34,067 bases of DNA from an uncultured Flavobacteriales bacterium (GCA_964391495.1 CAYMMN010000001.1:1-34067); one strand, 5' to 3'. Shown: positions 14,631-34,065, numbered from the stretch's first letter. Program-made: numbers and translations. Notes: generated by a model from the letters alone, not told the origin.

Positions 14631-14813
14631 TACTTGGTAAATTGCACTATCTTAAATTGCTGTAAGCAGGAAATCCGCAAAACCTGAGAAAAACCGTTAA
14701 AATACGCACATTTTTATTGCGGAATTGTGTAAATAATTTATCTTGCATGAGCATTCATCATGCGTTTCTTTGCTGCGTGCAAAGATTATAAGATTTTATC
14801 ATTTCGTTTATCT

Positions 14814-16493
14814 ATGACTCATTCCGACTCCACGCTAATCACGTGCAGCCTGTTTCACAATCTTGACCAAGTAGTACTCGCGGAAATTCTTTCTCACTCA
14901 GAAACGAATGAATATCCGAAAGGCGCTGTTTTGGTTAATAAGGGCTCTGTGCCCAGCGCGCTTTACATTGTAAAAAATGGAACAGTAGAAATTTACAATG
15001 AAGATGTATTGCTGGCGACACTTGGTTCGCTTTCAATCCTGGGTGAAAGTTTTCTTGCCGATGCCGTTGCGACAGCTACGATTGTGGCGGGATCAGACCT
15101 CACCATGGTGGAAATTAAAAAAGATGTTTTTTATTCTCTTGCGGTGAAATACCCTCAATTGATTCTGAACATTTTTAAAATTAATTTTCAACGATTAAGA
15201 AATTCAAATGACGCGGCTTTAAAAGAAGCACGCGAACGGGAAGAGAAATTAAATCAACTCGTCAACGAACGCACGCGCGCTTTGAATGAAACCATGCTGG
15301 AATTGCGTAAGACGAATGATGAATTATCCATCACGCGTGACAATCTGATCGAAACACAAAAATTCCGTCAGCAATTTCTGGCCAACATGAGCCATGAAAT
15401 TCGTACTCCCATGAATGCTATCGTGGGATTGACAAACCTTCTCATCAAATCACCGCTCAATGAGCAGCAGGAAAAATATTTAAATGTCATCAAGAAAAGC
15501 GGTGCCAACCTGCTGGTCATCATTAACGACATTCTTGATCTCGCGAAAATTGAATCCGGAAAAATGGAACTGGAAGCAGTACCATTCCCGTTCATTTCAG
15601 CAATTCACAACATTCACACGATTCTCGGTCTTAAGGCTGAAGAAAAGGGAATTAAAATGGAACAGATCATCGGAGAAGGTGTTCCTGAATATGTCGTTGG
15701 CGATGAAACAAGAATTACCCAGGTGATTATGAACCTTGCCGGTAATGCCATTAAATTCACTGAAAAGGGAGCTGTTACCATTTCCGTTATTCCTGAAAAT
15801 AAAACTGACAAGGAAGTCGTTGTCAGAGTAGGTATCCGCGATACAGGAATTGGGATTCCCGCTGACAAAATCGACAAGATCTTTGAGAGTTTTGGACAGG
15901 CCTCCTCAGATACAACCCGGAAATTCGGTGGAACCGGTCTGGGATTAACTATTTCCAAACAATTGGTGGAAATGCACGGCGGAGATTTGAAAGTTCAAAG
16001 TGAACCTGGCAAGGGATCTGAGTTTTATTTTACTATTAAATACACCATTGCTACAAAACCTCAGGAAGACAATATCGATGATCTGGCGACTTCACACGAC
16101 TTGTCCACTGTAAAAATTCTATTGGTTGAAGACAACGAATTCAATCAAATGGTAGCTGTGGATACATTGAATGATATTTTTCCTGAAGTAAAAGTGGAAG
16201 TCGCGAATGATGGACAAGAGGCACTTGATAAACTCAGTGCCGACAACTACAGTTTTGTCTTTATGGATATCCAAATGCCGGGAATGGATGGTTATGAAAC
16301 TACCCGTCGTATCCGGAAAATGGAAGACACATTAAAGAAGAATATCAGAATTTGTGCAATGACTGCTAACGTAACCCGGGAAGAAATCGATGAATGCCTT
16401 GCATCAGGAATGAATGATTACATGATGAAGCCATTCAGTACCGAAACTCTCCGGGAAAAAGTAATCCGTAACGCCTTTCCCAACGAATCGTGA
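14814..16493 (+). CDS. cytoplasmic hybrid sensor histidine kinase: CAP/cNMP-binding-like domain - coiled coil - HisKA - HATPase_c - receiver
   Basis: CAP-type beta-barrel (YPKGAVLVNKGSVPSALYIVKNGTVEIY...ILGES). H-box FLANMSHEIRTPMNAIVG. N/G boxes NLAGNAIKFT, DTGIGIP, GGTGLGLTISK. Receiver ILLVEDNEFNQ...FMDIQMPGMDG...MTAN. No TM segment. ATG at 14814 is preferred over 14760. Confidence 0.9.
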   Translation: MTHSDSTLITCSLFHNLDQVVLAEILSHSETNEYPKGAVLVNKGSVPSALYIVKNGTVEIYNEDVLLATLGSLSILGESFLADAVATATIVAGSDLTMVEIKKDVFYSLAVKYPQLILNIFKINFQRLRNSNDAALKEAREREEKLNQLVNERTRALNETMLELRKTNDELSITRDNLIETQKFRQQFLANMSHEIRTPMNAIVGLTNLLIKSPLNEQQEKYLNVIKKSGANLLVIINDILDLAKIESGKMELEAVPFPFISAIHNIHTILGLKAEEKGIKMEQIIGEGVPEYVVGDETRITQVIMNLAGNAIKFTEKGAVTISVIPENKTDKEVVVRVGIRDTGIGIPADKIDKIFESFGQASSDTTRKFGGTGLGLTISKQLVEMHGGDLKVQSEPGKGSEFYFTIKYTIATKPQEDNIDDLATSHDLSTVKILLVEDNEFNQMVAVDTLNDIFPEVKVEVANDGQEALDKLSADNYSFVFMDIQMPGMDGYETTRRIRKMEDTLKKNIRICAMTANVTREEIDECLASGMNDYMMKPFSTETLREKVIRNAFPNES

Positions 16494-17140
16494 ATCAAAT
16501 AACTTATTCCAAAAGCGCGAGGAATTATTCTTCGTCAACATCATCCACGGTCATGAACCGATACGAACAAACAAAACAATTTATACTCGGAAAACTGAGC
16601 ACCGGATTACCGGACAACCTCACGTATCATGGCTATCACCATGTTCTGGATGTATTGAGTGCAGCTGAAATGTTATGCGAAAAAGAGAAAATTCCAGCGG
16701 AAGATGTTGAGTTGGTAAAAGTAGCTGCCCTGATGCATGATTCCGGATTCATGCTGAATGCGGTAAACCACGAACAGATCGGTAGTGATATGGCCAGAAA
16801 ATTATTACCGGAATTCGGCTATAATAAACCTGAAATAGAAACTATCTGCGGCATGATTCTCGCGACAAAATTTCCGCAGCAACCTAAAAATCATCTGGAA
16901 GAAATTCTCTGTGATGCAGATTTGGATTACCTCGGCCGCCCTGATTTTTTCAGTATTGGAAATACCCTTTTTGAAGAACTAAAAACAAGTGGCAATATTT
17001 CTACTTTAAGAGAATGGAACCAGCTTCAGGTTACATTTCTATTAACCCATAAATATTTTACCCGTTCAGCCAAAGAACTGCGCGATTTTCAAAAAGAAGT
17101 CCATCTACAACAGGTGAAAAATTTGCTCGCAAAACCCTGA
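16490..17140 (+). CDS. HD-domain metal-dependent phosphohydrolase
   Basis: H...HD...D pattern: YHGYHHVLDV, ALMHDSGF, CDADLDYLG. The GTG start overlaps the kinase stop (GTGA). An alternative ATG lies at 16553. Confidence 0.8.
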   Translation: MNQITYSKSARNYSSSTSSTVMNRYEQTKQFILGKLSTGLPDNLTYHGYHHVLDVLSAAEMLCEKEKIPAEDVELVKVAALMHDSGFMLNAVNHEQIGSDMARKLLPEFGYNKPEIETICGMILATKFPQQPKNHLEEILCDADLDYLGRPDFFSIGNTLFEELKTSGNISTLREWNQLQVTFLLTHKYFTRSAKELRDFQKEVHLQQVKNLLAKP

Positions 17141-17188: not shown

Positions 17189-17358
17189 GATTTTGATAGA
17201 TTAAATCTCTGTCCTGGAAAATCAGATCTTAACAATTTTTTTTGGCCATTTGCGTTTCTTTTTCAGTTTCTGCATTAAATCAAGAATAACACGGATTGTT
17301 AAAAAATCACCTCCGTAAGCCCCGCAAGGAAAAATATTATTGATAGATTTACCAAATC

Positions 17359-18222
17359 ATGAGACTTCTGGCAGTTCTCTTATGCGTTTTGGCTTTGGCC
17401 TCCTGTAAAAAGGAAGAGCTGGTTACAGTTGATAATAATATTCCACCGGAAGATTATACAATTGAACCTGTAGTTGTAGAAAATTATATCAACCGTACAT
17501 ATATTCTCACCCTTGGCAGAGAACCTGATGAAACTGAATTTAATACAGCGCGTCAGGCGCTATTGAACAGTGGAGTGGACAGCGCGTCCCGACAGGATTT
17601 CCTGGCTTCCGTTTTTTCGGACCCCTCGTATCTTCCAGCTGTTTACAATCAGAATAAAATTGATTTGCTAAACAACGTTGACACCGCAGAATTCACCAAC
17701 TGGATTAACATTTTTGAATTTTTACTGCAGGACTCAACGAATATTACTTCCTGGCCCGCCTTACAACAACAACTAGACAGGTTGATTGAATTGCGAAACG
17801 CATTCCCTGAATTCATAAATGCAACAATTGGTGTGGACGAATTGCAACGCAGAATGTGCAACAATTACCTCTATGATCAGATCAATATGGGTGCCGCGAA
17901 TTTTGTCATCTCTACCTTTCAGCACTTGATTAACAGAAACCCGACAATTTCCGAACAACAAAATGGAATCAATATGGTGGGCGGAATCAATGCGGTACTT
18001 TTTCTGCAAGCCGGATCTAATCAGAATGACTACCTGAACATTCTCACGCATTCCGGTAATTATTTTGAAAGCCAGGTGGTATTGCTGTATCACAAATTCC
18101 TCAATCGCGAACCAAATACTGAAGAAATGCTTAATGGCACTCAAAAATATAGCAGTATAGGGGACTACACAGCTGTACAAAGGGACATTTTAGCTACAAA
18201 CGAATTCATCGGCATCCAATGA
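17359..18222 (+). CDS. lipoprotein of unknown function with three DUF4214-like [LF]-x-R-[EN]-P motifs
   Basis: Lipobox LALASC. Repeated motif segments TLGREPDETEF, LINRNPTISEQ and FLNREPNTEEM. C-terminal ILATNEFIG. Confidence 0.7.
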   Translation: MRLLAVLLCVLALASCKKEELVTVDNNIPPEDYTIEPVVVENYINRTYILTLGREPDETEFNTARQALLNSGVDSASRQDFLASVFSDPSYLPAVYNQNKIDLLNNVDTAEFTNWINIFEFLLQDSTNITSWPALQQQLDRLIELRNAFPEFINATIGVDELQRRMCNNYLYDQINMGAANFVISTFQHLINRNPTISEQQNGINMVGGINAVLFLQAGSNQNDYLNILTHSGNYFESQVVLLYHKFLNREPNTEEMLNGTQKYSSIGDYTAVQRDILATNEFIGIQ

Positions 18223-18701
18223 AAAAATTAATTTTTCTTGTTTTGATTCTGCCATATTTATTTTCCTGTAGCAGGGAAAATAAATACGAATATGAAGTCA
18301 ATCCTGTGGATGTTTCTCAAAACGGTGGAGTAAAAAACTCGCAAAAGACAACTGCGGAGTTTATTTCCATCGCTTATGCTGATCTGTTCGGAATCCAGAT
18401 TCCTCAGTCAAGGCTTGTGAATCTGAGCATCGCATACAGTTCCTTTGGTGATCAAAAAGTGATTGAGGACCGTATTATCCGGAATTTCATTAACGATACA
18501 CTGGCCATCATTCCTGATTCCGTAGTGATCAATAGAGATACTTCGGCTTTCATTGTAAAAGCCTACAAAAAATTCTTCAACCGCGAACCTTCTGAGTTTG
18601 AAAAATACACCTGGAAGAATACAATTCAACAGGATGCTTCGATAAACCCTTTGATGGTATATTATACATTGATGACATCCGATGAATACAGATTCTATTA
18701 A
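18219..18701 (+). CDS. small lipoprotein of unknown function (one DUF4214-like motif)
   Basis: Lipobox YLFSC. KKFFNREPSEFEKY motif. C-terminal TSDEYRFY. ATGA overlap with the upstream gene. Confidence 0.65.
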   Translation: MKKLIFLVLILPYLFSCSRENKYEYEVNPVDVSQNGGVKNSQKTTAEFISIAYADLFGIQIPQSRLVNLSIAYSSFGDQKVIEDRIIRNFINDTLAIIPDSVVINRDTSAFIVKAYKKFFNREPSEFEKYTWKNTIQQDASINPLMVYYTLMTSDEYRFY

Positions 18702-18710
18702 TCTCAGCGC

Positions 18711-20063
18711 ATGATGAAAAGAAGGGATTTCATAAAAAAATCTGCACTGGCAACTGCAGGAGTGATTGCATCACCCTATCTGCTTCCATCCGGCAGTCTG
18801 TTCGCCGCGACCGGAATGCGTCGTGTTAACCATGTTGTATTTTGTCTGTATGCTGGAGGTGTGCGCAATCTGGAATCAGTTCACATGAATGACGGTAATC
18901 TCATGCCAAATTTACTTTCAGGTGGAGGTTCTGTTTCACCCGATATCGCCGGAGCGATGGAAGCCCTGCCACCAGCTCCGCTTCCGCTTCCCTTGCAAAA
19001 CTACGGCACCCTTTTCAAAGAATTTAGATATTACAATGGTCCGACGGGGCATTACAATGGACATACAGTTGCTCTGACAGGAAATTATGTTGATGTAGAT
19101 TTGAATCTGCGCGAACACCCAAGAAAACCTACCATTTTTGAATACTACCGCAAACACAATTCTCCACAGCAGAGCGCATTGAAATGCTGGTGGGTTGCAA
19201 ATACACTCGGACCTTATCCGGCCTTGAATTATTCCTCCGCTTCCGCATATGGTGCTTCCTATGGCGCTAATTTTATTTCGCCGACATCACTCATCAGTCC
19301 GCAGGGCTTTGATGTGCTCGGAAATCCGCGTGTGTTCAGCAGTCAGGAGGAAGCTGCGGTGAATAATATCCGTGGTTTTGTAAACGGAATGTTTAATCAT
19401 TCTTATTCCGATGGTTCAGCAGGAGTAGTGAATACAGATACCGATAGAATTCAACTTCATCAATTCATCACAGATTTATATACCAAAGCGCAAAGTTCAG
19501 CATTCCTTAATTCCTGGAACGCCGGAAGCGCAATGAATAATGATATGTACAACATTCTCTTCGCTGAAGAAATCATCCGCACCTTCACACCGGAATTACT
19601 GGTGGTGAATATGCAGGATGTGGATGTCTGTCATTTTCAATATACCCAATACGCCAACAACCTGCGCAAAGCGGATTTTGCAGTCGCTCAATTGTGGAAG
19701 ACTATACAATCAACTCCGGGAATGGCGGATGATACTGTACTTATCATAGCTCCTGAACACGGAAGAAATTTCTATCCGAATACTTCAGTGGATGCTTATG
19801 GCCGTCGTGCGCTGGATCATACTGCTCCGACAGATCCAAATTTTACCGGTGATCCCAACATGCAAATGGCCAGAGAAATCTTCTGTCTTGTTGTAGGACC
19901 TCCAAATGTTGTTGTACAAAATCAGGTAATCTCAACCATTATGGGAGAAAGCACCGAAATCGTTCCCGCCATTGCTAACTTACTTGGATTCGATCAGGAC
20001 ATGCCCGGAACATATGGAGTTAAACCCTGGTCAACATGCCAGCTTCAAGCCGCCTTTGTATGA
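18711..20063 (+). CDS. Tat-exported protein, DUF1501-like (alkaline-phosphatase/sulfatase-superfamily-like), function unknown
   Basis: Twin-arginine leader MMKRRDFIKKSALATAGVIASP. VVFCLYAGGVRNLES near the N-terminus, and IIAPEHGRN...GRRALDHT...EIVPAIANLLGF near the C-terminus. These resemble the DUF1501 pattern (xEFGRT...GRDHW...TiLxxLG) from memory. Confidence 0.55.
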   Translation: MMKRRDFIKKSALATAGVIASPYLLPSGSLFAATGMRRVNHVVFCLYAGGVRNLESVHMNDGNLMPNLLSGGGSVSPDIAGAMEALPPAPLPLPLQNYGTLFKEFRYYNGPTGHYNGHTVALTGNYVDVDLNLREHPRKPTIFEYYRKHNSPQQSALKCWWVANTLGPYPALNYSSASAYGASYGANFISPTSLISPQGFDVLGNPRVFSSQEEAAVNNIRGFVNGMFNHSYSDGSAGVVNTDTDRIQLHQFITDLYTKAQSSAFLNSWNAGSAMNNDMYNILFAEEIIRTFTPELLVVNMQDVDVCHFQYTQYANNLRKADFAVAQLWKTIQSTPGMADDTVLIIAPEHGRNFYPNTSVDAYGRRALDHTAPTDPNFTGDPNMQMAREIFCLVVGPPNVVVQNQVISTIMGESTEIVPAIANLLGFDQDMPGTYGVKPWSTCQLQAAFV

Positions 20064-20986
20064 TCAATATTAAAAAATATCTTCTGCATTTATTTTCGGC
20101 AGTGCTGATTGCTTCTGTATGGTCGTGCAAAAACGATGAAGAGCCGGTAAATCCATACGACGCACTTGACCACTCATCTAACACCAACACTCCCACACCA
20201 CCGGATCCGAATTCAATTGCAGGTTTATATAAAAATATTTTCAGTGTCCGTTGCGCAAACCCGGGATGTCACGACGGAACATTCGAACCGGATTTCAGAA
20301 CTATTGAATCTTCCTATGCAACTCTTGTTTATCAAACAGTCAACAAACTCACACTTGATTCAGCAAAATTTTATTCTTACAGAGCCATTCCCAATAATGT
20401 AAATGACTCCTGGCTCATCGAACGACTCACGACGCCAACAACCGAATACATGCCTTCTAACAGTATTCGTTTGTCTACAGAGGATATTGACCATGTAAAA
20501 AACTGGATCAATGCCGGATGTCCCGATATGAATGGCGTTGTCGCAGTAAAGCCTGATCTTCCACCGAATGTAACGGGCTTCGCTGCATTTGATGTTAACG
20601 GAAATCAGATTGATACAAATCGTTTGAATGGAGATCCGATCAGTCCTTTTCTGGTGAACGCAGGCAGCGCATTAACAATAGGCTTTGTCGCGACGGATAC
20701 GAGTGATGGAACTTCCGCGACAGATCCCGGACAATTCACGGTGAAGGAAATTCATTTCTCCACCGACAAAAATGATTTCAGTAATTCAACTGTTCTTGTT
20801 GCGAGTACATATATTGCAGGATATTCAGCCTGGCTGGCAACGTTGCCTGCAGTTTCATGGCCTGTTGGTACTACGGTGTATTTTCGGATTTATGTAAACG
20901 ATGGTCATCATACCAACAATACCGAATTTCCAAGGTTTGATTCTCCTGATTATTACAAAACCTATTTTTCTTTTTATGTACAGTAA
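20060..20986 (+). CDS. lipoprotein with N-terminal planctomycete-cytochrome-like domain (CANPGCH) and C-terminal beta-rich domain
   Basis: Lipobox SVWSC. CANPGCH at nt 20252-20272 is followed by ...EYMPSNSIRLSTEDIDHVKNWINAGCP, which parallels the PuuD C-terminal haem domain in this same window. ATGA overlap with the upstream gene. Confidence 0.6.
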   Translation: MINIKKYLLHLFSAVLIASVWSCKNDEEPVNPYDALDHSSNTNTPTPPDPNSIAGLYKNIFSVRCANPGCHDGTFEPDFRTIESSYATLVYQTVNKLTLDSAKFYSYRAIPNNVNDSWLIERLTTPTTEYMPSNSIRLSTEDIDHVKNWINAGCPDMNGVVAVKPDLPPNVTGFAAFDVNGNQIDTNRLNGDPISPFLVNAGSALTIGFVATDTSDGTSATDPGQFTVKEIHFSTDKNDFSNSTVLVASTYIAGYSAWLATLPAVSWPVGTTVYFRIYVNDGHHTNNTEFPRFDSPDYYKTYFSFYVQ

Positions 20987-21413
20987 AGGGATCTTTCTTT
21001 TAGTTACGCTCTTTCTTTGTTACTCCTGCAACAAAGACAAGATTGAATTTGATTCTACTCCTTCGATTGAAGTGACTGCAATTAGTCCCGGTTCCGTACA
21101 GGAATTTACACAGCCGGTAACGGTTACAATTAAATACAAGGATGGAGATGGAGATCTTGGGGAAAACAGCAGTGGTGTAAAAAACTGCTTTGTCACCGAC
21201 AACAGGATTGGAATTATCTCATCCTTTCGTATTCAGCAACTCGGACCTGATGGGTCCAACATCACCGGATCACTGAACATTGATCTAGGCGGACAAGGCA
21301 TCACAGATACATCCCTCAGTAGCCAGAATGTTAGTTTTTCTGTTTACGTTGTAGACAGAGCAGGACATGTCAGCAATACCGCTACTACTGCAGCAATTAC
21401 TATCCATAGATAA
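20976..21413 (+). CDS. small beta-rich lipoprotein of unknown function
   Basis: Lipobox LCYSC. 145 aa that look Ig-like or beta-sandwich-like (VTVTIKYKDGDGDLG, VSFSVYVVDRAGHVS). 11-nt overlap with the upstream gene. Confidence 0.6.
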   Translation: MYSKGIFLLVTLFLCYSCNKDKIEFDSTPSIEVTAISPGSVQEFTQPVTVTIKYKDGDGDLGENSSGVKNCFVTDNRIGIISSFRIQQLGPDGSNITGSLNIDLGGQGITDTSLSSQNVSFSVYVVDRAGHVSNTATTAAITIHR

Positions 21414-23154: not shown

Positions 23155-23175
23155 AATAATCTCAATCTACATTTG
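23144..23175 (+). promoter_or_regulatory. candidate Bacteroidota promoter (-33 TTTG / -7 TACATTTG) for the efflux operon
   Basis: TTTG at 23144-23147 and TACATTTG at 23168-23175 are separated by 20 nt. They lie 22 nt upstream of the tetR-family ATG. The -33 element sits inside the second direct repeat. Confidence 0.45.
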
Positions 23176-23196
23176 TCACCAATTAAGTACAGCCCA

Positions 23197-23844
23197 ATGG
23201 CCAGCCCCAAAAAAAAGGAAGTCGATCCGAGCACTGAAGAAAAGATCAAAATCGCTGCCCGTAAATTGTTTACACAAAGAGGATTTGCAGCTGTAAAGAC
23301 GCGTGATATCGCCGATGAAGCCGGTATCAATCTGGCCCTGCTCAATTACTACTTCCGAAGTAAAGAAAAACTCTTCAACCTGATTATGGAAGAAAGTTTA
23401 CTTCGTTTTGTGGAAGGTATCGCAGAAAAATTCAATGATGAAACAACAAGTATTGAAGTAAAGATCCAACGACTGGTTTCAAGTTACATAGATCTTTTTT
23501 CACAATATCCTGATCTGCCCTTGTTTATATTAAGTGAATTGAGACAACATCCCGACAAGTTACCTGCTAAACTGGATATGATTGCCGGCATTGCACGTTC
23601 ATCCTTTGTCAAACAAATACGTGAAGCAATGAAAGAAGGCAAATTTCCCGAAATGAATGTCTTTCATTTCATGGCAAACATGATGAGTCTGATTGTATTT
23701 CCATTTGTAGCATCACCCATGCTTATGAAAATATCAGGGGTTTCTCAAAAACAATACAATGAAATGATGCAGGAAAGAAAAGAAATGATTCCGCTCTGGA
23801 TCAATTCAATGCTCAAAACAAAAGCGATAAAAAAATCACGTTAA
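23197..23844 (+). CDS. TetR/AcrR-family transcriptional regulator
   Basis: N-terminal HTH EEKIKIAARKLFTQRGFAAVKTRDIADEAGINLALLNYYFRSKEKLF. ATG at 23197 is preferred over the TTG at 23173. Confidence 0.9.
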   Translation: MASPKKKEVDPSTEEKIKIAARKLFTQRGFAAVKTRDIADEAGINLALLNYYFRSKEKLFNLIMEESLLRFVEGIAEKFNDETTSIEVKIQRLVSSYIDLFSQYPDLPLFILSELRQHPDKLPAKLDMIAGIARSSFVKQIREAMKEGKFPEMNVFHFMANMMSLIVFPFVASPMLMKISGVSQKQYNEMMQERKEMIPLWINSMLKTKAIKKSR

Positions 23845-23863
23845 CTCAGGTAAATTTTCAAAC

Positions 23864-25159
23864 ATGTTGAAGCATTCAATGGTTAACCAAATTTTCCCTC
23901 ACCTCCGTACTATTGGTTCGTGGATTGTTCTCGCAATCTTACCACTACAATTATTTTCACAATCCCTGAACCTGGATTCCTGTCAGCACCTGGCAAAAAT
24001 CAATTATCCACTTTCAAAACAATCGGAATTACTCTCCAAAAGCAGGGAGTATTCTCTTGATAACCTGAACAAAGGATTTTGGCCTCAGCTGAATATAGGA
24101 GGACAAGCCACCTATCAATCCGATGTAACAGAAATTCCATTGCGTCTTCCTGGAATTTCCATACCCTCTGTACCAAAAGATCAGTTTAAAATATATGGGG
24201 AAGTTAACCAACCCATTACTGATCTGATCACTGTAGGAAAACAGAAGGAAGTTCAACGCGCTCAGTCTTACGTACAAGCCGCCAATCTCGAAGTTGAATT
24301 GTACAAACTGAGAGATCGCGTGAATCAGCTCTATTTCGGTATTCTCATGATTGATGCGCAACTCAGGCAAAACGAACTTCTGAAAAATGATATTCAAACC
24401 GGTCTCAATAAAATTAATGCCGGTCTTGCCAATGGAACAGAATACAAAAGCAATTCAGATAAACTAAAAGCGGAGCTGTTACGTGCCAATCAAAAGACTA
24501 TTGAATTGAATGTAGCTCGAAAAGCATATCTTGAAATGCTTTCACAATTTATCCATGTAACACTACAGGAAAATACCATTCTCGAAACTCCGGCACAACA
24601 AACCATTGCAGCGAATATCAACCGTCCGGAGTTGAATTATTATTCAAGCCGTGACAAGAGCTTCGATGCGCAGAAAAAATTACTATCCGCACGAAATCTG
24701 CCGAAATTCGGTTTGTTTTTTCAGGGAGGATGGGGACAACCGTCTCCTGTAAATCTTCTCTCCAAGGATCTTTCCTCCTATTATATCGCCGGAATCCGTT
24801 TGAACTGGTCCGTCAGTGGTTTGTATACACTGCACAAAGAAAAAGCCCTGATTGAACTCGATCGGAAAATGAACGATTCACAAAAGGAAACCTTTCTCTT
24901 TAACACAACATCAACAAACTCTCAGATCAATGCGGAAATTAATAAACTGCAACTACTGCTGAATACGGATGATGAAATTGTGCAATTGAGAACATCAATC
25001 AAATCGAGAGCACAGGTACAGCTCGAAAACGGAATCATTACCACAAATGATTATCTGAAAGAAATTTCAGCAGAAGATCAGGCAAGACAAAATAAAATTC
25101 TTCATGAAATACAACTTCTTCTTGCACTCTATACACAACAATACACAACAGGCAATTAA
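23864..25159 (+). CDS. TolC-family outer-membrane efflux protein
   Basis: Signal-like N-terminus. Two-fold repeat of long coiled-coil segments with beta-strand motifs (GGQATYQSDV, GLFFQGGWG). Operon context with an HlyD adaptor and an ABC exporter. Confidence 0.85.
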   Translation: MLKHSMVNQIFPHLRTIGSWIVLAILPLQLFSQSLNLDSCQHLAKINYPLSKQSELLSKSREYSLDNLNKGFWPQLNIGGQATYQSDVTEIPLRLPGISIPSVPKDQFKIYGEVNQPITDLITVGKQKEVQRAQSYVQAANLEVELYKLRDRVNQLYFGILMIDAQLRQNELLKNDIQTGLNKINAGLANGTEYKSNSDKLKAELLRANQKTIELNVARKAYLEMLSQFIHVTLQENTILETPAQQTIAANINRPELNYYSSRDKSFDAQKKLLSARNLPKFGLFFQGGWGQPSPVNLLSKDLSSYYIAGIRLNWSVSGLYTLHKEKALIELDRKMNDSQKETFLFNTTSTNSQINAEINKLQLLLNTDDEIVQLRTSIKSRAQVQLENGIITTNDYLKEISAEDQARQNKILHEIQLLLALYTQQYTTGN

Positions 25160-25181
25160 TTCATATTATCCTTCCCACGCT

Positions 25182-26072
25182 ATGAAATCCATTTCATTCC
25201 TAACTCTCCTGAGTCTTTTGCTTTTCTCCTGCAACCGGAACCAGATCAATTTTGATGCGTCCGGGTCCTTTGAAACAGAAGAAACAATTATTTCTTCTGA
25301 AGTAACCGGAGCATTGCTTCAATTCAACATTGAAGAAGGACAAACTTTAAAAGCCGGAGATGTGATCGGATACATCGACAGTACACAATTGTTTCTGAAA
25401 AGAAAACAATTGGAATCACAAATTCGCTCGACCCTCAGTCAGCGTCCTGATATATCTACACAGATCGCTTCCCTGCAAATACAGCTTGCCTCAGCAGAAC
25501 GCGAACAAAAACGCTTGAGTAATCTTGTAAAAGCAGAAGCGGCTACACAAAAACAACTGGACGATGCGACAGCACAGGTGGATGTAATCAAAAAACAACT
25601 TGCTGCACAGCAGTCGGCTCTTTCAATTACATCCGAAAGCATTACCCAGCAAACGAATCCACTGGAAGTTCAAATCGAACAAATCAATGATCAACTCTCC
25701 AAATGCAAACTGGTAAACCCGGTGAATGGAACGGTTCTTACAAAATATGCCGAATCAAAAGAAATGACCACGACGGGAAAAGCATTGTATAAGATCGCGG
25801 ATCTCTCTGAATTGTATCTGAGAGCTTATGTCAGTGGTGCTCAACTTAGTCAAATCAAACTCAATCAAAATGTAAAAGTATTTACTGATGACGGGGCGAA
25901 AAATCTCAAAGAGTATGCCGGCACAATCGTTTGGATCAGTGATAAAGCTGAATTCACACCCAAAACAATTCAAACCAAGGAAGAAAGATCCAATATGGTG
26001 TATGCTCTGAAAGTAAAAGTAAAAAATGACGGTTTACTTAAGATCGGCATGTATGGCGAGATCAAATTTTGA
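25182..26072 (+). CDS. HlyD-family periplasmic adaptor (membrane fusion) lipoprotein
   Basis: Lipobox LLFSC. Lipoyl-like VKAGDVIGYID, a long coiled coil (QLESQIR...AEREQKRL...QLDDATAQVDVIKKQL), and beta-barrel motifs (PVNGTVL, VWISDKAEFTPK). Confidence 0.88.
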   Translation: MKSISFLTLLSLLLFSCNRNQINFDASGSFETEETIISSEVTGALLQFNIEEGQTLKAGDVIGYIDSTQLFLKRKQLESQIRSTLSQRPDISTQIASLQIQLASAEREQKRLSNLVKAEAATQKQLDDATAQVDVIKKQLAAQQSALSITSESITQQTNPLEVQIEQINDQLSKCKLVNPVNGTVLTKYAESKEMTTTGKALYKIADLSELYLRAYVSGAQLSQIKLNQNVKVFTDDGAKNLKEYAGTIVWISDKAEFTPKTIQTKEERSNMVYALKVKVKNDGLLKIGMYGEIKF

Positions 26073-26096
26073 GGCTCCAAATCCTAAAACAAAACA

Positions 26097-27032
26097 ATGG
26101 TTGCTGTTGAGCACATAATCAAAACGTACAATAAAGGTCTCGTGAAGGCGGTAAATGATGTTTCATTTAAAGTCGACAAAGGCGAAATTTTTGGATTGAT
26201 TGGACCTGATGGTGCCGGGAAAACAAGTTTGTTTCGCATGCTCACTACCTTACTCCTGCCTGACGGAGGAAAAGGAACCGTATCCGGATTTGACATTGTG
26301 AAAGATTATAAAAAGATCCGGGAAAGTGTCGGCTATATGCCCGGAAAATTTTCCCTGTACCAGGATCTTACCGTTGAAGAGAACCTCTCCTTTTTTGCGA
26401 CAATATTCGGCACTACCATTCAGGAGAATTACGATTTGATCAAAGATATATACGTTCAGATAGAACCATTCAAAAAAAGAAAAGCCGGACAGCTTTCGGG
26501 AGGAATGAAACAAAAGCTGGCATTGAGTTGTGCTTTGATTCACAAACCTTCCGTGCTTTTTCTGGATGAACCTACCACAGGAGTCGATGCAGTTTCCAGA
26601 ACAGAATTCTGGGAAATGCTGAAACGGCTGAAACAACAAGGGATTACAATCCTTGTTTCCACGCCATACATGGATGAAGCCTCACTGTGTGATCGCATCG
26701 CGCTTATTCAATCGGGGAAAATTCTCTCCATCAATACGCCTCCGAATATTATTGCAGCCTACGGTGAAAAACTCTATGGAATTAAATCTGATCGCATGTA
26801 CGATCTTTTGAAAGACCTGAGAAAATCCGCGTTGGTTGACAGTTGCAATGCTTTTGGAGAATTCCTGCACATTACCTTCAAATCAAAAGAGGACAAAAGA
26901 AAAGAGTTGCTTTATGAATTAAAAAATCTCGGGCACTTGAATCCTGAATTCATCGAAACAGAACCAAAGATCGAGGATTGCTTTATCAAATTGATGAAAC
27001 AACCTTCTGATTCAGAAATTTTAGCCTCCTGA
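26097..27032 (+). CDS. ABC transporter ATP-binding protein (NBD1; canonical signature, degenerate Q- and H-loops)
   Basis: Walker A GPDGAGKTS, signature LSGGMKQKL, Walker B VLFLDEPTTGVD. The Q-loop position reads GYMPGKF (Gly instead of Gln) and the H-loop reads VSTPYMDEA (Pro instead of His). Confidence 0.9.
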   Translation: MVAVEHIIKTYNKGLVKAVNDVSFKVDKGEIFGLIGPDGAGKTSLFRMLTTLLLPDGGKGTVSGFDIVKDYKKIRESVGYMPGKFSLYQDLTVEENLSFFATIFGTTIQENYDLIKDIYVQIEPFKKRKAGQLSGGMKQKLALSCALIHKPSVLFLDEPTTGVDAVSRTEFWEMLKRLKQQGITILVSTPYMDEASLCDRIALIQSGKILSINTPPNIIAAYGEKLYGIKSDRMYDLLKDLRKSALVDSCNAFGEFLHITFKSKEDKRKELLYELKNLGHLNPEFIETEPKIEDCFIKLMKQPSDSEILAS

Positions 27033-27772
27033 TGTCGCAACCGGTTATTTATACAAATAAACTCACCAAGAAATTCGGAGACTTCATCGCCGCGAATGAA
27101 CTAAGCTTTGAAGTTCAACCGGGTGAAATCTTTGGTTTCCTCGGGGCGAATGGAGCCGGGAAAACCACCGCAATGCGAATGCTGTGCGGCTTGCTTGTCC
27201 CTTCTTCCGGGGAAGCACATGTAGCCGGATTTGATGTATACAAGCAAAGAGAAAAAATAAAACAGAATATCGGATACATGAGTCAAAAATTCTCTTTGTA
27301 CGAAGATCTCACCGTTTCCGAGAATATAAAATTCTATGCCGGAATTTATGGCTTGAGCAACTCTGAAATAAAAGAAAAGACCGACAAGTTGTTGAAACAA
27401 CTGGATCTGGAAAGCGAAGCGAACCAACTTGTGAGCAGTTTGCCTCTAGGCTGGAGACAAAAACTTTCCTTTTCCGTTGCCATCATCCATGAGCCCCGGA
27501 TTGTATTTCTTGATGAACCAACAGGCGGTGTTGATCCGGTAACGCGCCGACAATTCTGGGATCTGATCTACGATGCTTCAAGTCGGGGTATCACCGCATT
27601 TGTGACTACACATTATATGGACGAAGCAGAATATTGCAACCGGATTTCAATTATGGTGGATGGTGTTATTGAAGCATTGGACAGTCCGGTGAATTTGAAG
27701 AAAAAATTCAACGCGGTTTCAATGGACGATGTCTTCCGCCAATTGGCGAGAAGGGCGACAAGAAGTGAATAG
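27032..27772 (+). CDS. ABC transporter ATP-binding protein (NBD2; degenerate signature, canonical Q- and H-loops)
   Basis: Walker A GANGAGKTT, Q-loop GYMSQKF, Walker B VFLDEPTGGVD, H-loop VTTHYMDEA. The signature is LPLGWRQKL instead of LSGGQ. TGATG overlap with NBD1. Confidence 0.9.
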   Translation: MSQPVIYTNKLTKKFGDFIAANELSFEVQPGEIFGFLGANGAGKTTAMRMLCGLLVPSSGEAHVAGFDVYKQREKIKQNIGYMSQKFSLYEDLTVSENIKFYAGIYGLSNSEIKEKTDKLLKQLDLESEANQLVSSLPLGWRQKLSFSVAIIHEPRIVFLDEPTGGVDPVTRRQFWDLIYDASSRGITAFVTTHYMDEAEYCNRISIMVDGVIEALDSPVNLKKKFNAVSMDDVFRQLARRATRSE

Positions 27773-27803
27773 GGATTGAATGAAATTTATTCTCTGAAAA
27801 ATA

Positions 27804-28910
27804 ATGAAGCAGCTTTTATCATTTGTAAAAAAAGAATTCTATCATGTTTTCCGTGACAGGAAAACATTGCTGATGTTGTTCGGTTTACCAATCGCGCAGA
27901 TAATTCTTTTTGGTTTTGCTCTTACCAATGAAATAAAAAACGCGAAAATTATTGTTGTGGATTATGCCAAGGATCTGAAAAGCCGCGAAATCATCGACAA
28001 GCTGGAAGCAAGTAAATATTTTGATATTGAAAAATCACTGGCAAGTCAGAGAGACATTGAAGAGTCATTCAAAGAAGGAAAAATCAAAATAGCTGTAATT
28101 TTCCCTTTGAATTTTTCCGCTGATCTTGCCAGAACAAATAAAGCCAGCATCCAGGTAATAGCCGATGCTTCCGATATCAACACCGCCACAACGCTGACGA
28201 ATTACATCAGCGCTATCGTAACGGATTACCAATCGCAATTAAACAAAGGAAGTAAAATGCCATATCGCATTCTTCCCGAGATCCGAATGTTATACAACCC
28301 TCAACTGAAAGGAGAGCATACTTTTATTCCGGGGATGATGGCTATGATCATGATGTTGATCTGTGTGATGATGACAGCAATAGCTATTGTCAGGGAAAAA
28401 GAACTCGGAACCATGGAAATTCTTTTGGTTTCCCCTTTTAAACCAATGATGGTGATTGTTTCCAAATTTGTTCCTTATCTGTTGATATCACTTGTGAACA
28501 TCACCTCTATCCTTTTACTGAGCACATTCTTTCTCAATCTTCCGGTACAGGGAAGTATCGTGTTGTTGTATGCCATCAGCCTTGTATTTATAATAACTTC
28601 ATTATGTCTGGGGCTTTTGATTTCCATTAAATCAGAGTCCCAGCAAACAGCCATGTTCATTTCATTGATGGCAACCCTGTTACCGACATTGTTGTTGAGC
28701 GGATTTCTTTTTCCCATTGAAAACATGCCGCTTCCCCTTCGAACTATTTCCAATGTGGTTCCTTCAAAATGGTTTTACATCATCGTAAAATCAATCATGA
28801 TTAAGGGATCCGGTTTTCAGTCTGTTTGGAAAGAAACGCTGATCCTCTCAGGAATGGCAGTTGCACTACTGATGATTAGTATACGCAGTTTTAAAATCCG
28901 ACTGGCATGA
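27804..28910 (+). CDS. ABC-2-type transporter permease (YbhS/YbhR-like)
   Basis: N-terminal TM, a large extracytoplasmic domain, then a C-terminal bundle of 5 TM helices. Follows the two NBD genes. Confidence 0.85.
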   Translation: MKQLLSFVKKEFYHVFRDRKTLLMLFGLPIAQIILFGFALTNEIKNAKIIVVDYAKDLKSREIIDKLEASKYFDIEKSLASQRDIEESFKEGKIKIAVIFPLNFSADLARTNKASIQVIADASDINTATTLTNYISAIVTDYQSQLNKGSKMPYRILPEIRMLYNPQLKGEHTFIPGMMAMIMMLICVMMTAIAIVREKELGTMEILLVSPFKPMMVIVSKFVPYLLISLVNITSILLLSTFFLNLPVQGSIVLLYAISLVFIITSLCLGLLISIKSESQQTAMFISLMATLLPTLLLSGFLFPIENMPLPLRTISNVVPSKWFYIIVKSIMIKGSGFQSVWKETLILSGMAVALLMISIRSFKIRLA

Positions 28911-30025
28911 GAACTATTCGATTTCTCCTTCAAAAAGAGTTCCGTCAGATCTTTCGAAACAAAACTTTGTTGCGTGCTATACTGATGGCACCCCTGATGC
29001 AGCTGATGGTTTTACCCTGGGCGGCAAATTATGAAGTAAAAAATATTTCTCTTTCAATTGTCGACAACGACCATTCAATCGAATCGCAACGAATGATTTC
29101 TAAAATCAGGTCGTCCGGCTATTTCATTTTATCTTCCTACAATTCAAGTTTCAAGGAAGCGTATCAGCTCATCGAACAAGACAAAGCAGACATCGTACTT
29201 GAAATCCCATCTCATTTTGAAAGAAACCTGATTCGTGAGGGCGAACAGAAACTCTACATCGCAGCCAATGCGATCAATGGACCCAAAGCTCTGGTAGGAA
29301 GTGGTTATCTGAGTGGAATTGTAGCCGCATACAATGCTGAGGTAAGAATGCAATGGATCCAACCGACGAAGTTAAACCCGCTCCCTTCATTTGAAATTGT
29401 CTCCTCAAACTGGTACAATCCGCTGATGAATTATAAAATCTTTATGGTTCCGGGAATTCTTGTACTTCTGGTCACTATGGTTGGAAGTATGATGTGCGCG
29501 ATGAACATTGTGAAGGAAAAGGAAATAGGAACCATCGAACAGATCAATGTTACTCCAATTCGAAAACTTCACTTTATCCTGGGTAAACTCATCCCGTTCT
29601 GGGTGCTTGGGATTGTCGTTTTCACTATGGGAATGATCATTGCCCGACTGGTCTATGGGATCAATCCGGTTGGAAATATTTTATTGGTGTATGCATTTTT
29701 GTCCATTTACCTTGTGGCTATTCTGGGACTGGGCCTATTGATTTCCACCTATTCCTCTACTCAGCAGCAGGCCATGTCGGTTTCATTTTTCTTCATCATG
29801 ATTTTTAATCTGTTGAGTGGCCTGTTCACACCGATCGAAAGTATGCCCGGATGGGCTCAGGTGATCGCCAAACTGAACCCGGTAACCTATTTCATAGAAG
29901 TGATGAGAATGGTGGTACTCAAGGGAAGTACTTTTCACAACATCACTCATCACATCCTGATCATCCTCTTGTTTGCTCTTGTCTTTAATGGTTGGGCAAT
30001 CCTCAACTATAGAAAAACGTCCTAA
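28907..30025 (+). CDS. ABC-2-type transporter permease (paralog of the preceding gene)
   Basis: Same architecture as 27804-28910 (FRNKTLLRAILMAPLMQLMV..., EKEIGTIEQINVTP). 4-nt overlap. Confidence 0.85.
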   Translation: MRTIRFLLQKEFRQIFRNKTLLRAILMAPLMQLMVLPWAANYEVKNISLSIVDNDHSIESQRMISKIRSSGYFILSSYNSSFKEAYQLIEQDKADIVLEIPSHFERNLIREGEQKLYIAANAINGPKALVGSGYLSGIVAAYNAEVRMQWIQPTKLNPLPSFEIVSSNWYNPLMNYKIFMVPGILVLLVTMVGSMMCAMNIVKEKEIGTIEQINVTPIRKLHFILGKLIPFWVLGIVVFTMGMIIARLVYGINPVGNILLVYAFLSIYLVAILGLGLLISTYSSTQQQAMSVSFFFIMIFNLLSGLFTPIESMPGWAQVIAKLNPVTYFIEVMRMVVLKGSTFHNITHHILIILLFALVFNGWAILNYRKTS

Positions 30026-32952: not shown

Positions 32953-34065
32953 TTACATTTTTACAGTTCTGAAGACGTGTGTTTCACCGGAGAATCGGAT
33001 TTCAACAAAATAAATTCCAGGGGTGAAGCTTTCGATATCAATTCTCTTACGGAAGTTTCCTTTTGAATCCTGAACCGATTGATAAACCTGGTCTCCTACA
33101 ACATTCACGATGCGAATATCTATATTCGTTTCATGCATAGTACTGAGAACAATGTTGAGCTCGTTTAATGCAGGATTTGGATAAACAAGAGGAGTGATTG
33201 TTCTTGAAGAACTTCCATAGAAGCTGCGCTGACAGGAAATCGTAGATACGATCACATCATCAAAATTCTGACAACCGTTCACATCTGTTACCAACACCGA
33301 GTATGCACCGGCAGCACCTACAACAATCTGTTGTGTTGTACTTTGATCTGACCAGAAATAATCCATAAAGCCTGCACCGGCATCAAGCGTGATCATATCA
33401 CCGATACAAATTGTTGTATCAGGACCAAGATCAACAACCGGAGAAGGAAAATCATATCCGATCGTAACCGTGAGGAAGGCAGGACAATTATTGTAATCAG
33501 AAACCTGTACTGTATAATTGCCCGGAGCCAGATTTGAAACCGCCGCGGTTGTTGCACCACCCGGCAACCAGAGGTAAGAATATGGTGCCATTCCACCACT
33601 ACCAACAACTTCAGCACTTCCATCTTCTCCATTTTGACAATGCGCATTGGTTGATGAAACCAAAGATGCAGTAATTCCCGAACTATTACCCACAAGATCC
33701 GAAACAAGGACAGAACAATTTGTCTGATTGTCAGTAATGAGTACAGAATAATATCCGGAAGTTAGTCCTGTTGCATTTGCACCTGTACTTACTGCAGGTG
33801 TCCAGTCATAAGTGAAATCACCGCTGCCACCATTTGTGGTAACAGAAGCCGTTCCATCAGCAGCATTACATGTTGCTGGGGTAGTGAGAATTGAAGCTGT
33901 GAAGCCTGAACCTCCGGCAATAGTAACAGTATCTCTGAGTGTGCAATTATTATTATCGCGAATCAGAACACTATAAGTTCCGGCAGAGAGGTTGCCTACA
34001 GAATCTGATGCTGCAGGAGGAACAGTATTCCACAGATAAGTATACGAACCTGTTCCGCCACTCAC
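32953..34065 (-). CDS. SprB-repeat cell-surface protein with T9SS C-terminal sorting domain (5' end beyond the window)
   Basis: At least three repeats of about 77 aa with C..G.DGSA.V...GG...Y.Y.W (CNAADGTASVTTNGGSGDFTYDWTP; CQNGEDGSAEVVGSGGMAPYSYLWLPGG). C-terminal about 80 aa are Por_Secre_tail-like (YPNPALNELNIVL...GIYFVEIRFSGETHVFRTVKM). The frame is open to the window edge; the listed first codon GTG is internal. Confidence 0.88.
   Translation of the reverse strand: MSGGTGSYTYLWNTVPPAASDSVGNLSAGTYSVLIRDNNNCTLRDTVTIAGGSGFTASILTTPATCNAADGTASVTTNGGSGDFTYDWTPAVSTGANATGLTSGYYSVLITDNQTNCSVLVSDLVGNSSGITASLVSSTNAHCQNGEDGSAEVVGSGGMAPYSYLWLPGGATTAAVSNLAPGNYTVQVSDYNNCPAFLTVTIGYDFPSPVVDLGPDTTICIGDMITLDAGAGFMDYFWSDQSTTQQIVVGAAGAYSVLVTDVNGCQNFDDVIVSTISCQRSFYGSSSRTITPLVYPNPALNELNIVLSTMHETNIDIRIVNVVGDQVYQSVQDSKGNFRKRIDIESFTPGIYFVEIRFSGETHVFRTVKM

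Follow-up and report, generated by a model that had tools for sequence, protein, structure and literature searches.

What is the function of five adjacent genes when every product is exported and no product has an assigned role? We addressed this question for a cassette, p1 to p5, which occupies positions 17359-21413 (counted from the first letter of the stretch) in 34,067 nt of DNA from an uncultured Flavobacteriales bacterium (GCA_964391495.1, CAYMMN010000001.1:1-34067; hereafter, the window). An initial annotation of the window had described four lipoproteins and one twin-arginine translocation (Tat) substrate without any recognizable catalytic annotation, and our searches likewise placed none of the five genes in a characterized pathway. 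In databases, the homologues are named only 'hypothetical protein' or, generically, 'alkaline phosphatase family protein', and a search of the literature returned no functional study of these families and no description of the cassette. The explanation that we favor, with confidence about evenly balanced, is that the five genes form a single, translationally coupled transcription unit that builds a cell-envelope enzyme–cytochrome system. By the same explanation, held at the same even level, the cassette would be the Bacteroidia counterpart of the DUF1501/PSCyt modules found in Planctomycetota, Verrucomicrobiota and Lentisphaerota (here, PVC modules), with the giant partner protein of those modules split into lipoproteins.

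The five genes are inherited together. A scan of one genome per species identified 381 genomes with a relative of p3, and the best 80 of these 381 were used for comparisons of loci. All 80 are metagenome-assembled genomes (MAGs) of uncultured Bacteroidia; one is the complete chromosome of Candidatus Pollutiaquabacter aromativorans, a member of a candidate order of that class. The order p1-p2-p3-p4-p5 is intact in 80/80 loci wherever the contig is long enough, and one cassette was found per locus. Identity to the window proteins ranges from 57 to 92% for p3 and falls as low as 33–38% for p1 and p4. The surroundings are far less constant. Genes that flank the cassette in the window recur in only 2/80 loci, and clustering of all flanks yielded only housekeeping families (M20 and M16 peptidases, TM2, GH3, DUF3822, LysE and a CoaD-like cytidylyltransferase), each in at most 25/80 loci. 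Because the flanks consist of such genes, the idea of drawing a functional clue from them was dropped. A TonB-dependent receptor is encoded in the flanks of 8/80 loci. That gene order is constant while the flanks vary indicates that the cassette moves and persists as an autonomous block. Four MAG records (L034, L044, L060 and L063) bear the name Bifidobacterium breve, Bifidobacterium sp. or Chitinophaga pinensis in their titles, probably through mislabeling of bins. Apart from the Tara Oceans variant, the genomes are MAGs of uncultured bacteria, with isolate names that suggest wastewater, freshwater and soil sources.

Gene order is also kept in more divergent copies, down to 27–38% identity, from other Bacteroidota and a Myxococcales MAG. 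Two of these, L083 and L087, encode proteins of 297–303, 161–167, 448–456, 163–178 and 148 aa (p1 to p5), which by tblastn are 31–45% (L083) and 29–40% (L087) identical to the window proteins. Their p4 equivalents (163 and 178 aa) consist of the N-terminal domain alone. A copy from a Tara Oceans metagenome assembly (L092), with related sequences labeled Flavobacteriales, encodes proteins of 303, 167, 454, 318 and 145 aa, and the corresponding lengths in L093 are 307, 174, 510, 334 and 147 aa. A Myxococcales MAG of 69.5% GC (L086) also carries a copy, with proteins of 301, 180, 483, 310 and 182 aa. Here, p2, p3 and p4 were matched by tblastn (E=7e-6, 6e-49 and 6e-12, respectively), and p1 and p5 by hhalign (E=3.8e-12, probability 97.6%, 255 columns; and E=1.1e-5, probability 82), supporting the homology of all five L086 proteins to those of the cassette. 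The initial annotation had named conservation of the five-gene neighborhood as a check of its proposal; we find strict co-conservation of the order both in the 80 close loci and in the divergent copies.

Two further observations concern the surroundings and content of such loci. In four divergent lineages of Bacteroidota, a sixth gene lies directly 3' of p5 (L083:7964-11458, L087:6980-10456, L092:7780-11365 and L093:8000-11533). Its products are orthologous proteins of 1150–1360 aa that combine CUB/PKD domains with CHU_C, a sorting domain of type IX secretion, and are 30–36% identical over most of their length. This gene is not beside the cassette in the window, nor in 78/80 of the close loci. 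The layout is another at L089:2583-7866 (65% GC), where the encoded proteins are of 494, 302 (p1-like), 459 (p3-like), 171 and 325 aa (p4-like); p2 and p5 were not found there by tblastn.

In the window, all five open reading frames (ORFs) lie on the + strand, and the junctions are of the types first described (Table 1). Genes p1 and p2 have an ATGA in common (18219-18222), and a 9-nt gap separates the p2 stop (18701) from the p3 ATG (18711). Genes p3 and p4 share another ATGA at 20060-20063, provided that p4 starts at the ninth codon of its longest ORF; the equivalent of this M9 is the start site in most homologues. Should p5 start at codon 26 of its longest ORF (20976), p4 and p5 overlap by 11 nt. 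None of the five genes is present as a second copy within the window. Just upstream of p1 is a sequence, TAGATTTAC, that we infer to be a putative promoter of the Bacteroidetes type, for which the −7 consensus is TAnnTTTG. The pattern T[AT]nnTTT[AG]C was found in 28/73 orthologous loci, compared to 5.9% of random 100-nt windows, and in most of these 28 loci it lies 5–16 nt 5' of the p1 start. A generic scan of the window for sigma-70 promoters and terminators performed no better than on shuffled sequence, and no Rfam families or tRNAs were found in the window.

Table 1. Position of the p1–p5 genes, the two domains of p4 and the promoter-like box in the window
Feature	Position (nt)	Strand	Description
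p1, lipoprotein	17359..18222	+	287 aa; lipobox Cys16; three DUF4214/phycobilisome-linker-like helical repeats
p2, lipoprotein	18219..18701	+	160 aa; lipobox Cys17; one C-terminal DUF4214-like repeat
p3, Tat-exported enzyme of the alkaline-phosphatase superfamily, DUF1501-like, without lipobox	18711..20063	+	450 aa
p4, lipoprotein	20060..20986 (preferred start 20060)	+	longest ORF 20036-20986, 316 aa; Cys31 in the numbering of that ORF
p4 N-terminal domain, c-type-cytochrome-like	20198..20545	+	aa 55-170
p4 C-terminal domain, Ig-like beta-sandwich	20549..20983	+	aa 172-316
p5, lipoprotein, probably Ig-like	20976..21413 (preferred start 20976)	+	~145 aa; longest ORF 20901-21413, 170 aa; Cys43 in the numbering of that ORF
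Bacteroidetes-type −7 promoter-like box (putative)	17344..17352	+	6 nt 5' of p1 ATG

Each of the five proteins carries an export signal. The lipobox strings noted earlier, LALASC (p1), YLFSC (p2), VWSC (p4) and CYSC (p5), are each preceded by a hydrophobic N-terminus, and their Cys is nearly invariant among 75–79 orthologues (73/75 for p1, 78/78 for p2, 78/79 for p4 and 77/77 for p5). All four proteins therefore have the mark of a bacterial lipoprotein, a signal peptide ending in a conserved lipobox Cys. Protein p3, to which a twin-arginine leader had been ascribed, starts with MMKRRDFIKK (leader MMKRRDFIKKSALATAGVIA; protein N-terminus MMKRRDFIKKSALATAG). It scores 19.7 bits against the Tat-signal model TIGR01409, above the curated cut-off of 16.7, and all 24 homologues compared retain R4, R5 and F7. 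The leader fits the pattern of Tat substrates, S/T-R-R-x-F-L-K with a hydrophobic stretch after it.

The initial annotation went on to describe the system as entirely periplasmic or anchored in the outer membrane, and this part of it is not established. In Bacteroidota, the surface lipoprotein export signal (LES) consists of C-X-K-(D/E)2-X right after the lipidated Cys (PMC5080379). Among the window proteins, p1 (CKKEEL) matches this motif and p4 (CKNDEE) nearly does, while p5 (CNKDKI) and p2 (CSRENK) do not match. In orthologues, the strict motif was seen in 14/74 p1, 2/79 p2, 37/79 p4 and 38/78 p5 proteins. This LES-like motif, carried by roughly one in two orthologues of p4 and of p5, together with the presumably type IX-sorted product of the sixth gene in four lineages, suggests that part of the system may face the cell surface.

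Scans of the five window proteins against Pfam and NCBIfam yielded nothing but DUF4214 and the Tat signal above cut-off. What kind of protein, then, is p3? The earlier assignment to DUF1501 (PF07394) named the nearest Pfam family and foresaw the superfamily fold, but p3 is not a member of DUF1501 by the curated test, scoring 11.9 bits (E=0.13) against a gathering threshold of 27 bits. Among 24 relatives of p3, Pfam matches were to DUF1501 (10 relatives, all sub-threshold, best 5.2e-4), Phosphodiest (7), Metalloenzyme (1) and Sulfatase (1), four families of the same alkaline-phosphatase clan. Two distant relatives, P0297 and P0305, exceed the DUF1501 threshold, with 28.0 and 28.6 bits, respectively. 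The features that typically accompany DUF1501 (PMC3542564), a Tat signal and a PSCyt/DUF1549/DUF1553 or DUF1800-like partner alongside, are found in the cassette. A profile search of 1.8 billion representatives retrieved only 713 proteins at E<=1e-3 (66 at E<=1e-30), indicating that p3 represents a small, distinct family.

Structure prediction and profile comparison both connect p3 to the alkaline-phosphatase superfamily. The AlphaFold2 (AF2) model of p3 has a mean predicted local distance difference test score (pLDDT) of 59.5 and a predicted template-modeling score (pTM) of 0.71. Searched against the PDB with Foldseek, it gave 211 matches at E<=1e-3 (top E=1.2e-8, probability 1.0), led by sulfatases, LtaS, YejM and alkaline phosphatase, with template-modeling (TM) scores of ~0.4; the periplasmic domains of LtaS/LtaP and YejM had the highest TM scores (0.42–0.54). 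A fold like that of sulfatases and alkaline phosphatases is thus predicted for p3, as the initial annotation had anticipated. PDB searches with the single p3 sequence or a narrow profile returned nothing significant, and a broad profile (A8) matched S1_8A sulfatase (8.7e-8), iPGM (9e-4), LtaS (3.7e-3) and NPP (0.024). In the A8 alignments, D305-x-x-H308 and E349-H350-G-R of p3 lie over metal-ligand motifs (PDmvGH/aDHG of iPGM and gDHGR of sulfatase). We counted residue conservation over 27 sequences, down to 22% identity. Residues R52, E/D55, D278, D305, H308, E/D349, G351-R352 and H370 are conserved in 27/27, H114 in 26/27 and S/T56 in 25/27, so that the superfamily metal-ligand positions D305, H308, E/D349 and H370 are all retained throughout. 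The segment T112-G-H-Y-N-G-H was considered as an NPP-like motif with a Thr nucleophile and rejected; T112 is found in 14/27 (it is Pro in the Myxococcales copy), compared to 26/27 for H114. These data place p3 in the alkaline-phosphatase superfamily and show that its conserved polar site is intact.

For p4, the initial annotation had proposed a cytochrome-like N-terminal domain and a beta-rich C-terminus. Pfam and NCBIfam scans, as well as PDB searches with the single sequence or a narrow profile, gave no family for window p4. Its AF2 model (pLDDT 77.5) contains four helices at about aa 60–165 and a beta-sandwich at aa 175–316 (strand pLDDT ~90). A Foldseek search with the whole model was dominated by generic immunoglobulin (Ig) and nanobody matches of the C-terminal domain, at E>=1.7e-3. 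This Ig-like domain is dispensable in some lineages, namely L083 and L087. In the N-terminal domain, C73-x-x-P-G-C78-H79-D-G-T-F-E-P-D and Y138-M139-P140 are invariant, and the Cys motif of window p4 reads C-A-N-P-G-C-H, or C-x4-C-H. A profile search with this domain retrieved stand-alone homologues of 135–205 aa, some of them of 155–180 aa, and C-x4-C-H, R-V-x-P, M-P and W-I-x-x-G-A are kept across all of them. At L084:5829-8526 and in L085, distant stand-alone homologues (~135–146 aa, CAVPGCHGG) occur in a GC-rich host without a p3-like enzyme alongside; on one side of them is a protein with a CHRD domain and on the other a protein of 373 aa that carries no annotation.

Several matches link this domain to c-type cytochromes. 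Of 18 relatives, 15 matched the C-terminal heme domain of TIGR03806 (SO2930-family diheme cytochrome), with a best value of 2.4e-5, and 7 matched PSCyt1, all sub-threshold (best 0.0029). A broad profile (A4) searched against the PDB matched the diheme cytochrome FoxE (5mab; E=4.4e-7). In each of the two FoxE heme domains, the aligned part comprises the Met-Pro segment and the C-terminal helix (vPGDp..S...MP...WI..GA). Given these matches and the persistent C/CH/MP pattern, the N-terminal domain of p4 appears homologous to c-type cytochrome domains, and heme binding by it is plausible. Together with the AF2 model, these results bear out the two-part architecture originally proposed for p4. The likening to PSCyt1 calls for a caveat: window p4 has no match to PSCyt1 (PF07635) at E<=5 and no CxxCH, and so cannot be counted as a member; its motif is C-x4-C-H, whereas that of PSCyt1 is CxxCH. 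Spacing of the putative heme cysteines also varies within the family, since the p4 equivalent at L086:6438-7370 has C-x6-C-H (CAGQPGLCH) and the Bacteroidota proteins have x4. In some cytochromes, C-x3-C-H, C-x4-C-H and longer spacings bind heme.

Proteins p1 and p2 share a short motif, [LF]xR[EN]Pxxx(E). The four occurrences reported earlier are all present, three in p1 (LGREPDETE, INRNPTISE and LNREPNTEE) and one in p2 (FNREPSEFE). The accompanying DUF4214 call holds for p1, which scores 25.2 bits against PF13946 (gathering threshold 23.2), but not for p2, which at 19.5–19.8 bits (E=1e-3) stays below the threshold and hence is only DUF4214-like. Among 26 orthologues of p1, 23 matched DUF4214, 6 matched PBS_linker_poly and 3 matched PSD1. 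In the PDB, the central repeat of p1 matched the phycobilisome linker Glr2806 (E=2.4e-6) and ApcH (4.5e-4). The possibility that p2 is a clear paralogue of p1 was dropped, as its hhalign match to the p1 central repeat is weak (probability 18%, E=1.3e-3).

Three alignments relate p1 and p2 to the partners of DUF1501 proteins. Window p1 itself has no match to PSCyt2/DUF1549 (PF07583) or PSD1/DUF1553 (PF07587) in a Pfam scan. In the three orthologues with a PSD1/DUF1553 match (best 1.8e-3), the match falls at profile positions 184–241 of 244; for this mapping, orthologues were concatenated in threes for a single Pfam scan, from which we used the positions and not the summed E-values. The 301-aa p1 orthologue of the Myxococcales copy (L086) has a precomputed weak match to PSCyt2/DUF1549. 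Finally, hhalign matches the p2 profile to the last 118 aa of a PKD protein that is 902 aa long and has a faint DUF1800 match (probability 94.6%, E=6.7e-8). The gene for this DUF1800-like protein lies, in L091, directly 5' of a p3 relative with a weak DUF1501 match and of a cytochrome-like protein. Pfam scans of p1 and p2, p1 orthologues included, gave no DUF1800 match. Judged by these PSD1, PSCyt2 and DUF1800-protein alignments, p1 and p2 are small proteins with a lipid anchor that are related to the helical portion of large DUF1501 partners. The same three alignments lend support to the earlier suggestion that the role of the partner is here split among small lipoproteins.

The remaining protein, p5, is probably a small, Ig-like beta-sandwich with a calcium-type loop. 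No Pfam or NCBIfam family and no PDB sequence match was found for the window protein; its orthologues gave weak Ig-like Pfam matches alone (DUF4625 and Big domains), and the motifs Y-x-D-x-D-G-D-L-G-x-N and D-R-x-G-x-x-S are invariant. We dropped the notion that p5 is a paralogue of the p4 C-terminal domain, because hhalign detected no relation. In 15/80 loci, a second p5-like lipoprotein is encoded ~3.8 kb 3' of the cassette, which suggests that p5 is part of a wider lipoprotein family. An example is L036:12634-13185, which encodes 183 aa with the motifs KDGDGDIG ... DRANHKSN.

How might these proteins act together? In the system that we envisage, p3 would be the catalytic subunit. It would fold and acquire its metal in the cytoplasm, loading of this kind being the usual reason for Tat export, and once exported it would dock on, and work with, the four lipid-anchored partners. 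Proteins p1 and p2 would serve as helical adaptors, by analogy to the docking of proteins by phycobilisome linker domains. Protein p4 would contribute a mono-heme c-type-cytochrome-like domain, with heme attached at C-x4-C-H and a Met-Pro distal ligand, fused to the Ig-like domain. The p3 metal site (D305, H308, H370 and E349), along with R52, E55-S56 and H114, would attack an ester or anhydride of the phosphate or sulfate type, and the p4 cytochrome would either exchange electrons with this reaction or keep the p3 metal center in the right redox state. The complex would be tethered and oriented at the membrane by p1, p2 and p5. The p5 module, with its calcium-binding-type motif, and the sandwich of p4 would bind the substrate or other components of the envelope. 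Similar logic has been proposed, without proof, for PVC DUF1501/PSCyt modules (PMC3542564).

A number of points weigh against such an enzyme–cytochrome system. Protein p3 misses the DUF1501 threshold, its model is of low confidence, and the TM scores of that model to its PDB matches are modest (~0.4). The beta1 Asp of the superfamily is replaced by G49-G50, and no more than 14/27 sequences retain H350. This makes a second metal site in p3 doubtful, and a single well-formed metal site plus an Arg would be expected rather than the classical two-metal site. On the side of p4, all matches of this type of protein to cytochrome families are below curated thresholds, the FoxE alignment spans the Met-bearing half of the domain and not the Cys motif, and the Cys spacing is non-canonical as well as variable (x4 in Bacteroidota, x6 in the Myxococcales copy). 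Binding among the five proteins is a prediction. Moreover, because the LES is found in about half of p4 and p5 orthologues and in few p1 or p2 orthologues, the partners are possibly in different compartments, and not all of them may share one with the Tat-exported p3. A need for a cytochrome is not known for any enzyme of the alkaline-phosphatase superfamily.

Could the cassette instead serve purely hydrolytic nutrient scavenging? Protein p3 would then act in the periplasm as a phosphatase, phosphodiesterase or sulfatase-like enzyme, the task of the lipoproteins would be limited to tethering it or binding its substrate, and the p4 domain would be structural or metal-binding, any heme in it being redox-inactive. 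The resemblance of p3 to hydrolases of the alkaline-phosphatase superfamily is consistent with this, as are the names that some databases give to relatives ('alkaline phosphatase family protein', 'Type I phosphodiesterase / nucleotide pyrophosphatase' and 'arylsulfatase A-like') and the non-canonical, variable Cys spacing of p4. The Ig-like domains of p4 and p5 could bind polymers, and the phosphatases PhoD and PhoX are also exported by Tat. However, the C, C-H, R..VP, MP and WI..GA elements, which amount to the pattern of a His/Met heme c, are kept both in Bacteroidia and in remote homologues of the p4 domain that stand alone. Nor is there a phosphate or sulfate transporter or a Pho-type neighbor that recurs in the flanks, and the related PVC modules always come with cytochrome-motif partners (PMC3542564). 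We regard simple hydrolysis as the foremost alternative, though an unlikely one.

A bolder form of the enzyme–cytochrome system would make the cassette an extracytoplasmic redox enzyme class, in which p3 is electronically coupled to a dedicated cytochrome c of the non-canonical (C-x4-C-H or C-x6-C-H) type. One possibility for the chemistry would be oxidation of a reduced phosphorus or sulfur compound (e.g. phosphite), another oxidative cleavage of an ester, with electrons passed to the respiratory chain. This we consider improbable.

An envelope-modifying transferase is a less probable explanation again. Here, p3 would resemble LtaS, EptA, OpgB or YejM and would transfer or sense a phospho-alcohol head group on an envelope lipid or glycan, with the lipoproteins as its membrane scaffold. 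LtaS/LtaP and YejM indeed give the best TM scores of all p3 matches, LtaS is also a sequence-profile match (3.7e-3), and the cassette lies among housekeeping genes, once per locus. Yet enzymes of the LtaS, EptA, OpgB and YejM type have a transmembrane anchor, and p3 does not; sulfatases surpass LtaS by E-value; and the cytochrome domain would be left without a role.

It is very unlikely that the cassette is a cell-surface device for electron transfer or metal oxidation, centered on a FoxE-like p4 to which p3 would be an accessory. In favor of this, FoxE, a putative Fe(II) oxidase, is the closest relative of the p4 domain among solved structures, the surface-export-like signal is found in nearly half of p4 and p5 orthologues, and in four lineages the cassette is followed by a protein of 1150–1360 aa with CUB/PKD domains that the type IX secretion system would sort. 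Set against this, the cassette offers one putative heme site only and no gene for an outer-membrane conduit, its most conserved protein is p3 (57–92% identity versus 33–81% for the others), p4 is reduced to its N-terminal domain in L083 and L087, and the clade of the window lacks the sixth gene. Finally, a chance cluster of five unrelated exported proteins, which the absence of a shared annotated pathway might suggest, is effectively excluded by synteny: the order is the same in 80/80 loci as far as the contigs reach, amid differing flanks, it is kept in copies only 22–38% identical and across phyla, and start and stop codons overlap.

Elsewhere in the window, we noted three further groups of genes. 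At 14760-17140 is a putative hybrid sensor kinase of 577 aa with, as read from its translation, a mid-protein H-box (HEIRTPMN) and, toward the C-terminus, a putative receiver region (MDGYE). Its gene shares 4 nt with that of a 216-aa protein whose translation contains an HD-like motif. This pair is common to the closest locus (L002) alone and hence lies outside the cassette. Judged by size, co-directional ORFs at 23173-30025 may encode a TetR-like regulator, a TolC-like outer-membrane protein, a membrane-fusion protein and pairs of ABC ATPases and ABC-2 permeases, which would make the region a probable efflux or export operon. The ORF at the end of the window (32953-34065, - strand) is weakly similar to the large CUB/CHU_C proteins in their C-terminal part (27% identity, 196 aa, E=2e-8). 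It probably encodes one more protein secreted by the type IX system, and its position sets it apart from the cassette.

The cassette matters in several ways. It is common, since no fewer than 381 species-level genomes encode a relative of p3 and Tara Oceans assemblies contain at least one variant, and it probably represents an enzymatic envelope system of abundant environmental Bacteroidia that is now annotated only as 'hypothetical protein'. It would also amount to a naturally dissected DUF1501 module, with the cytochrome, DUF1549/DUF1553-like helical and beta-sandwich parts made as separate small proteins that can be tested singly, and the strict co-inheritance of p1–p5 shows which parts belong together. 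If it binds heme, the C-x4-C-H / C-x6-C-H site would add to the short list of non-canonical heme c attachment motifs. If the cassette were in fact a redox enzyme, it would reveal the chemistry of hundreds of DUF1501/PSCyt modules in Planctomycetota and Verrucomicrobiota. A DUF1501-like module in Bacteroidia is in itself not astonishing; the split architecture, the C-xn-C-H site and the wide environmental range provide a handle on a long-standing question.

How does the cassette compare with systems already known, part by part and as a whole? With type I sulfatases, NPP, iPGM and LtaS, p3 has in common the core fold and the D-x-x-H and (D/E)-H-G-R motifs. It differs from them in lacking both the C/S-x-P-x-R formylglycine motif and the beta1 Asp, and in having a family-specific Arg52 and E/D55-S/T56 pair. 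FoxE of Rhodobacter ferrooxidans SW2 (PDB 5mab) resembles the p4-family domain in the Met-bearing half of each of its heme domains. FoxE is a soluble protein of an iron-oxidation operon and has two canonical CxxCH hemes, whereas in p4 a single C-x4-C-H site goes together with a lipid anchor and an Ig-like domain. The p1 repeats are like phycobilisome linker (PBS_linker_poly)/DUF4214 domains in their helical protein-docking fold and not in function; hosts of the cassette are non-photosynthetic and have no phycobiliproteins. Pairs of DUF1800 and DUF1501 genes are widespread in Proteobacteria and Bacteroidota. The DUF1800-like protein of L091 is homologous to p2 in its C-terminal 118 aa, but there the partner is a single protein of 902 aa, whereas in the cassette the partners are lipoproteins.

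The closest parallel is with the PVC modules. DUF1501 and planctomycete-type cytochrome families are among the most expanded in Planctomycetota and Verrucomicrobiota. Modules of DUF1501 with PSCyt1, PSCyt2 (DUF1549) and PSD1 (DUF1553) have been described in these phyla and in Lentisphaerota (PMC3542564; PMC5615132). DUF1501 and its cytochrome partners were recognized as conserved modules by 2012; they often have Tat signals and always have cytochrome-motif partners, and their function is not known (Kamneva et al. 2012, PMC3542564; the modules are also treated in He et al. 2017, PMC5615132). Like the PVC modules, the cassette combines a DUF1501-type enzyme bearing a Tat signal with a PSCyt1-like cytochrome domain, DUF1549/DUF1553-like helical regions and attached Ig-like beta-sandwich domains (protein- or sugar-binding), all in conserved linkage. 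The differences are equally clear. Where a PVC module has one large partner of roughly a thousand residues, the cassette has four small lipoproteins, and where the PVC partners have CxxCH, it has C-x4-C-H (C-x6-C-H in Myxococcales). All window proteins are below the Pfam thresholds of DUF1501, PSCyt1, PSCyt2 and PSD1. PVC genomes contain many paralogous DUF1501 modules each; the cassette, counted at the level of loci, occurs once per locus and is not duplicated in the 34-kb window. Its hosts are uncultured Bacteroidia and, in one case, a Myxococcales MAG. The DUF1501/PSCyt module is thus already known as an uncharacterized kind of system, and what looks new here is the split architecture with four lipoproteins.

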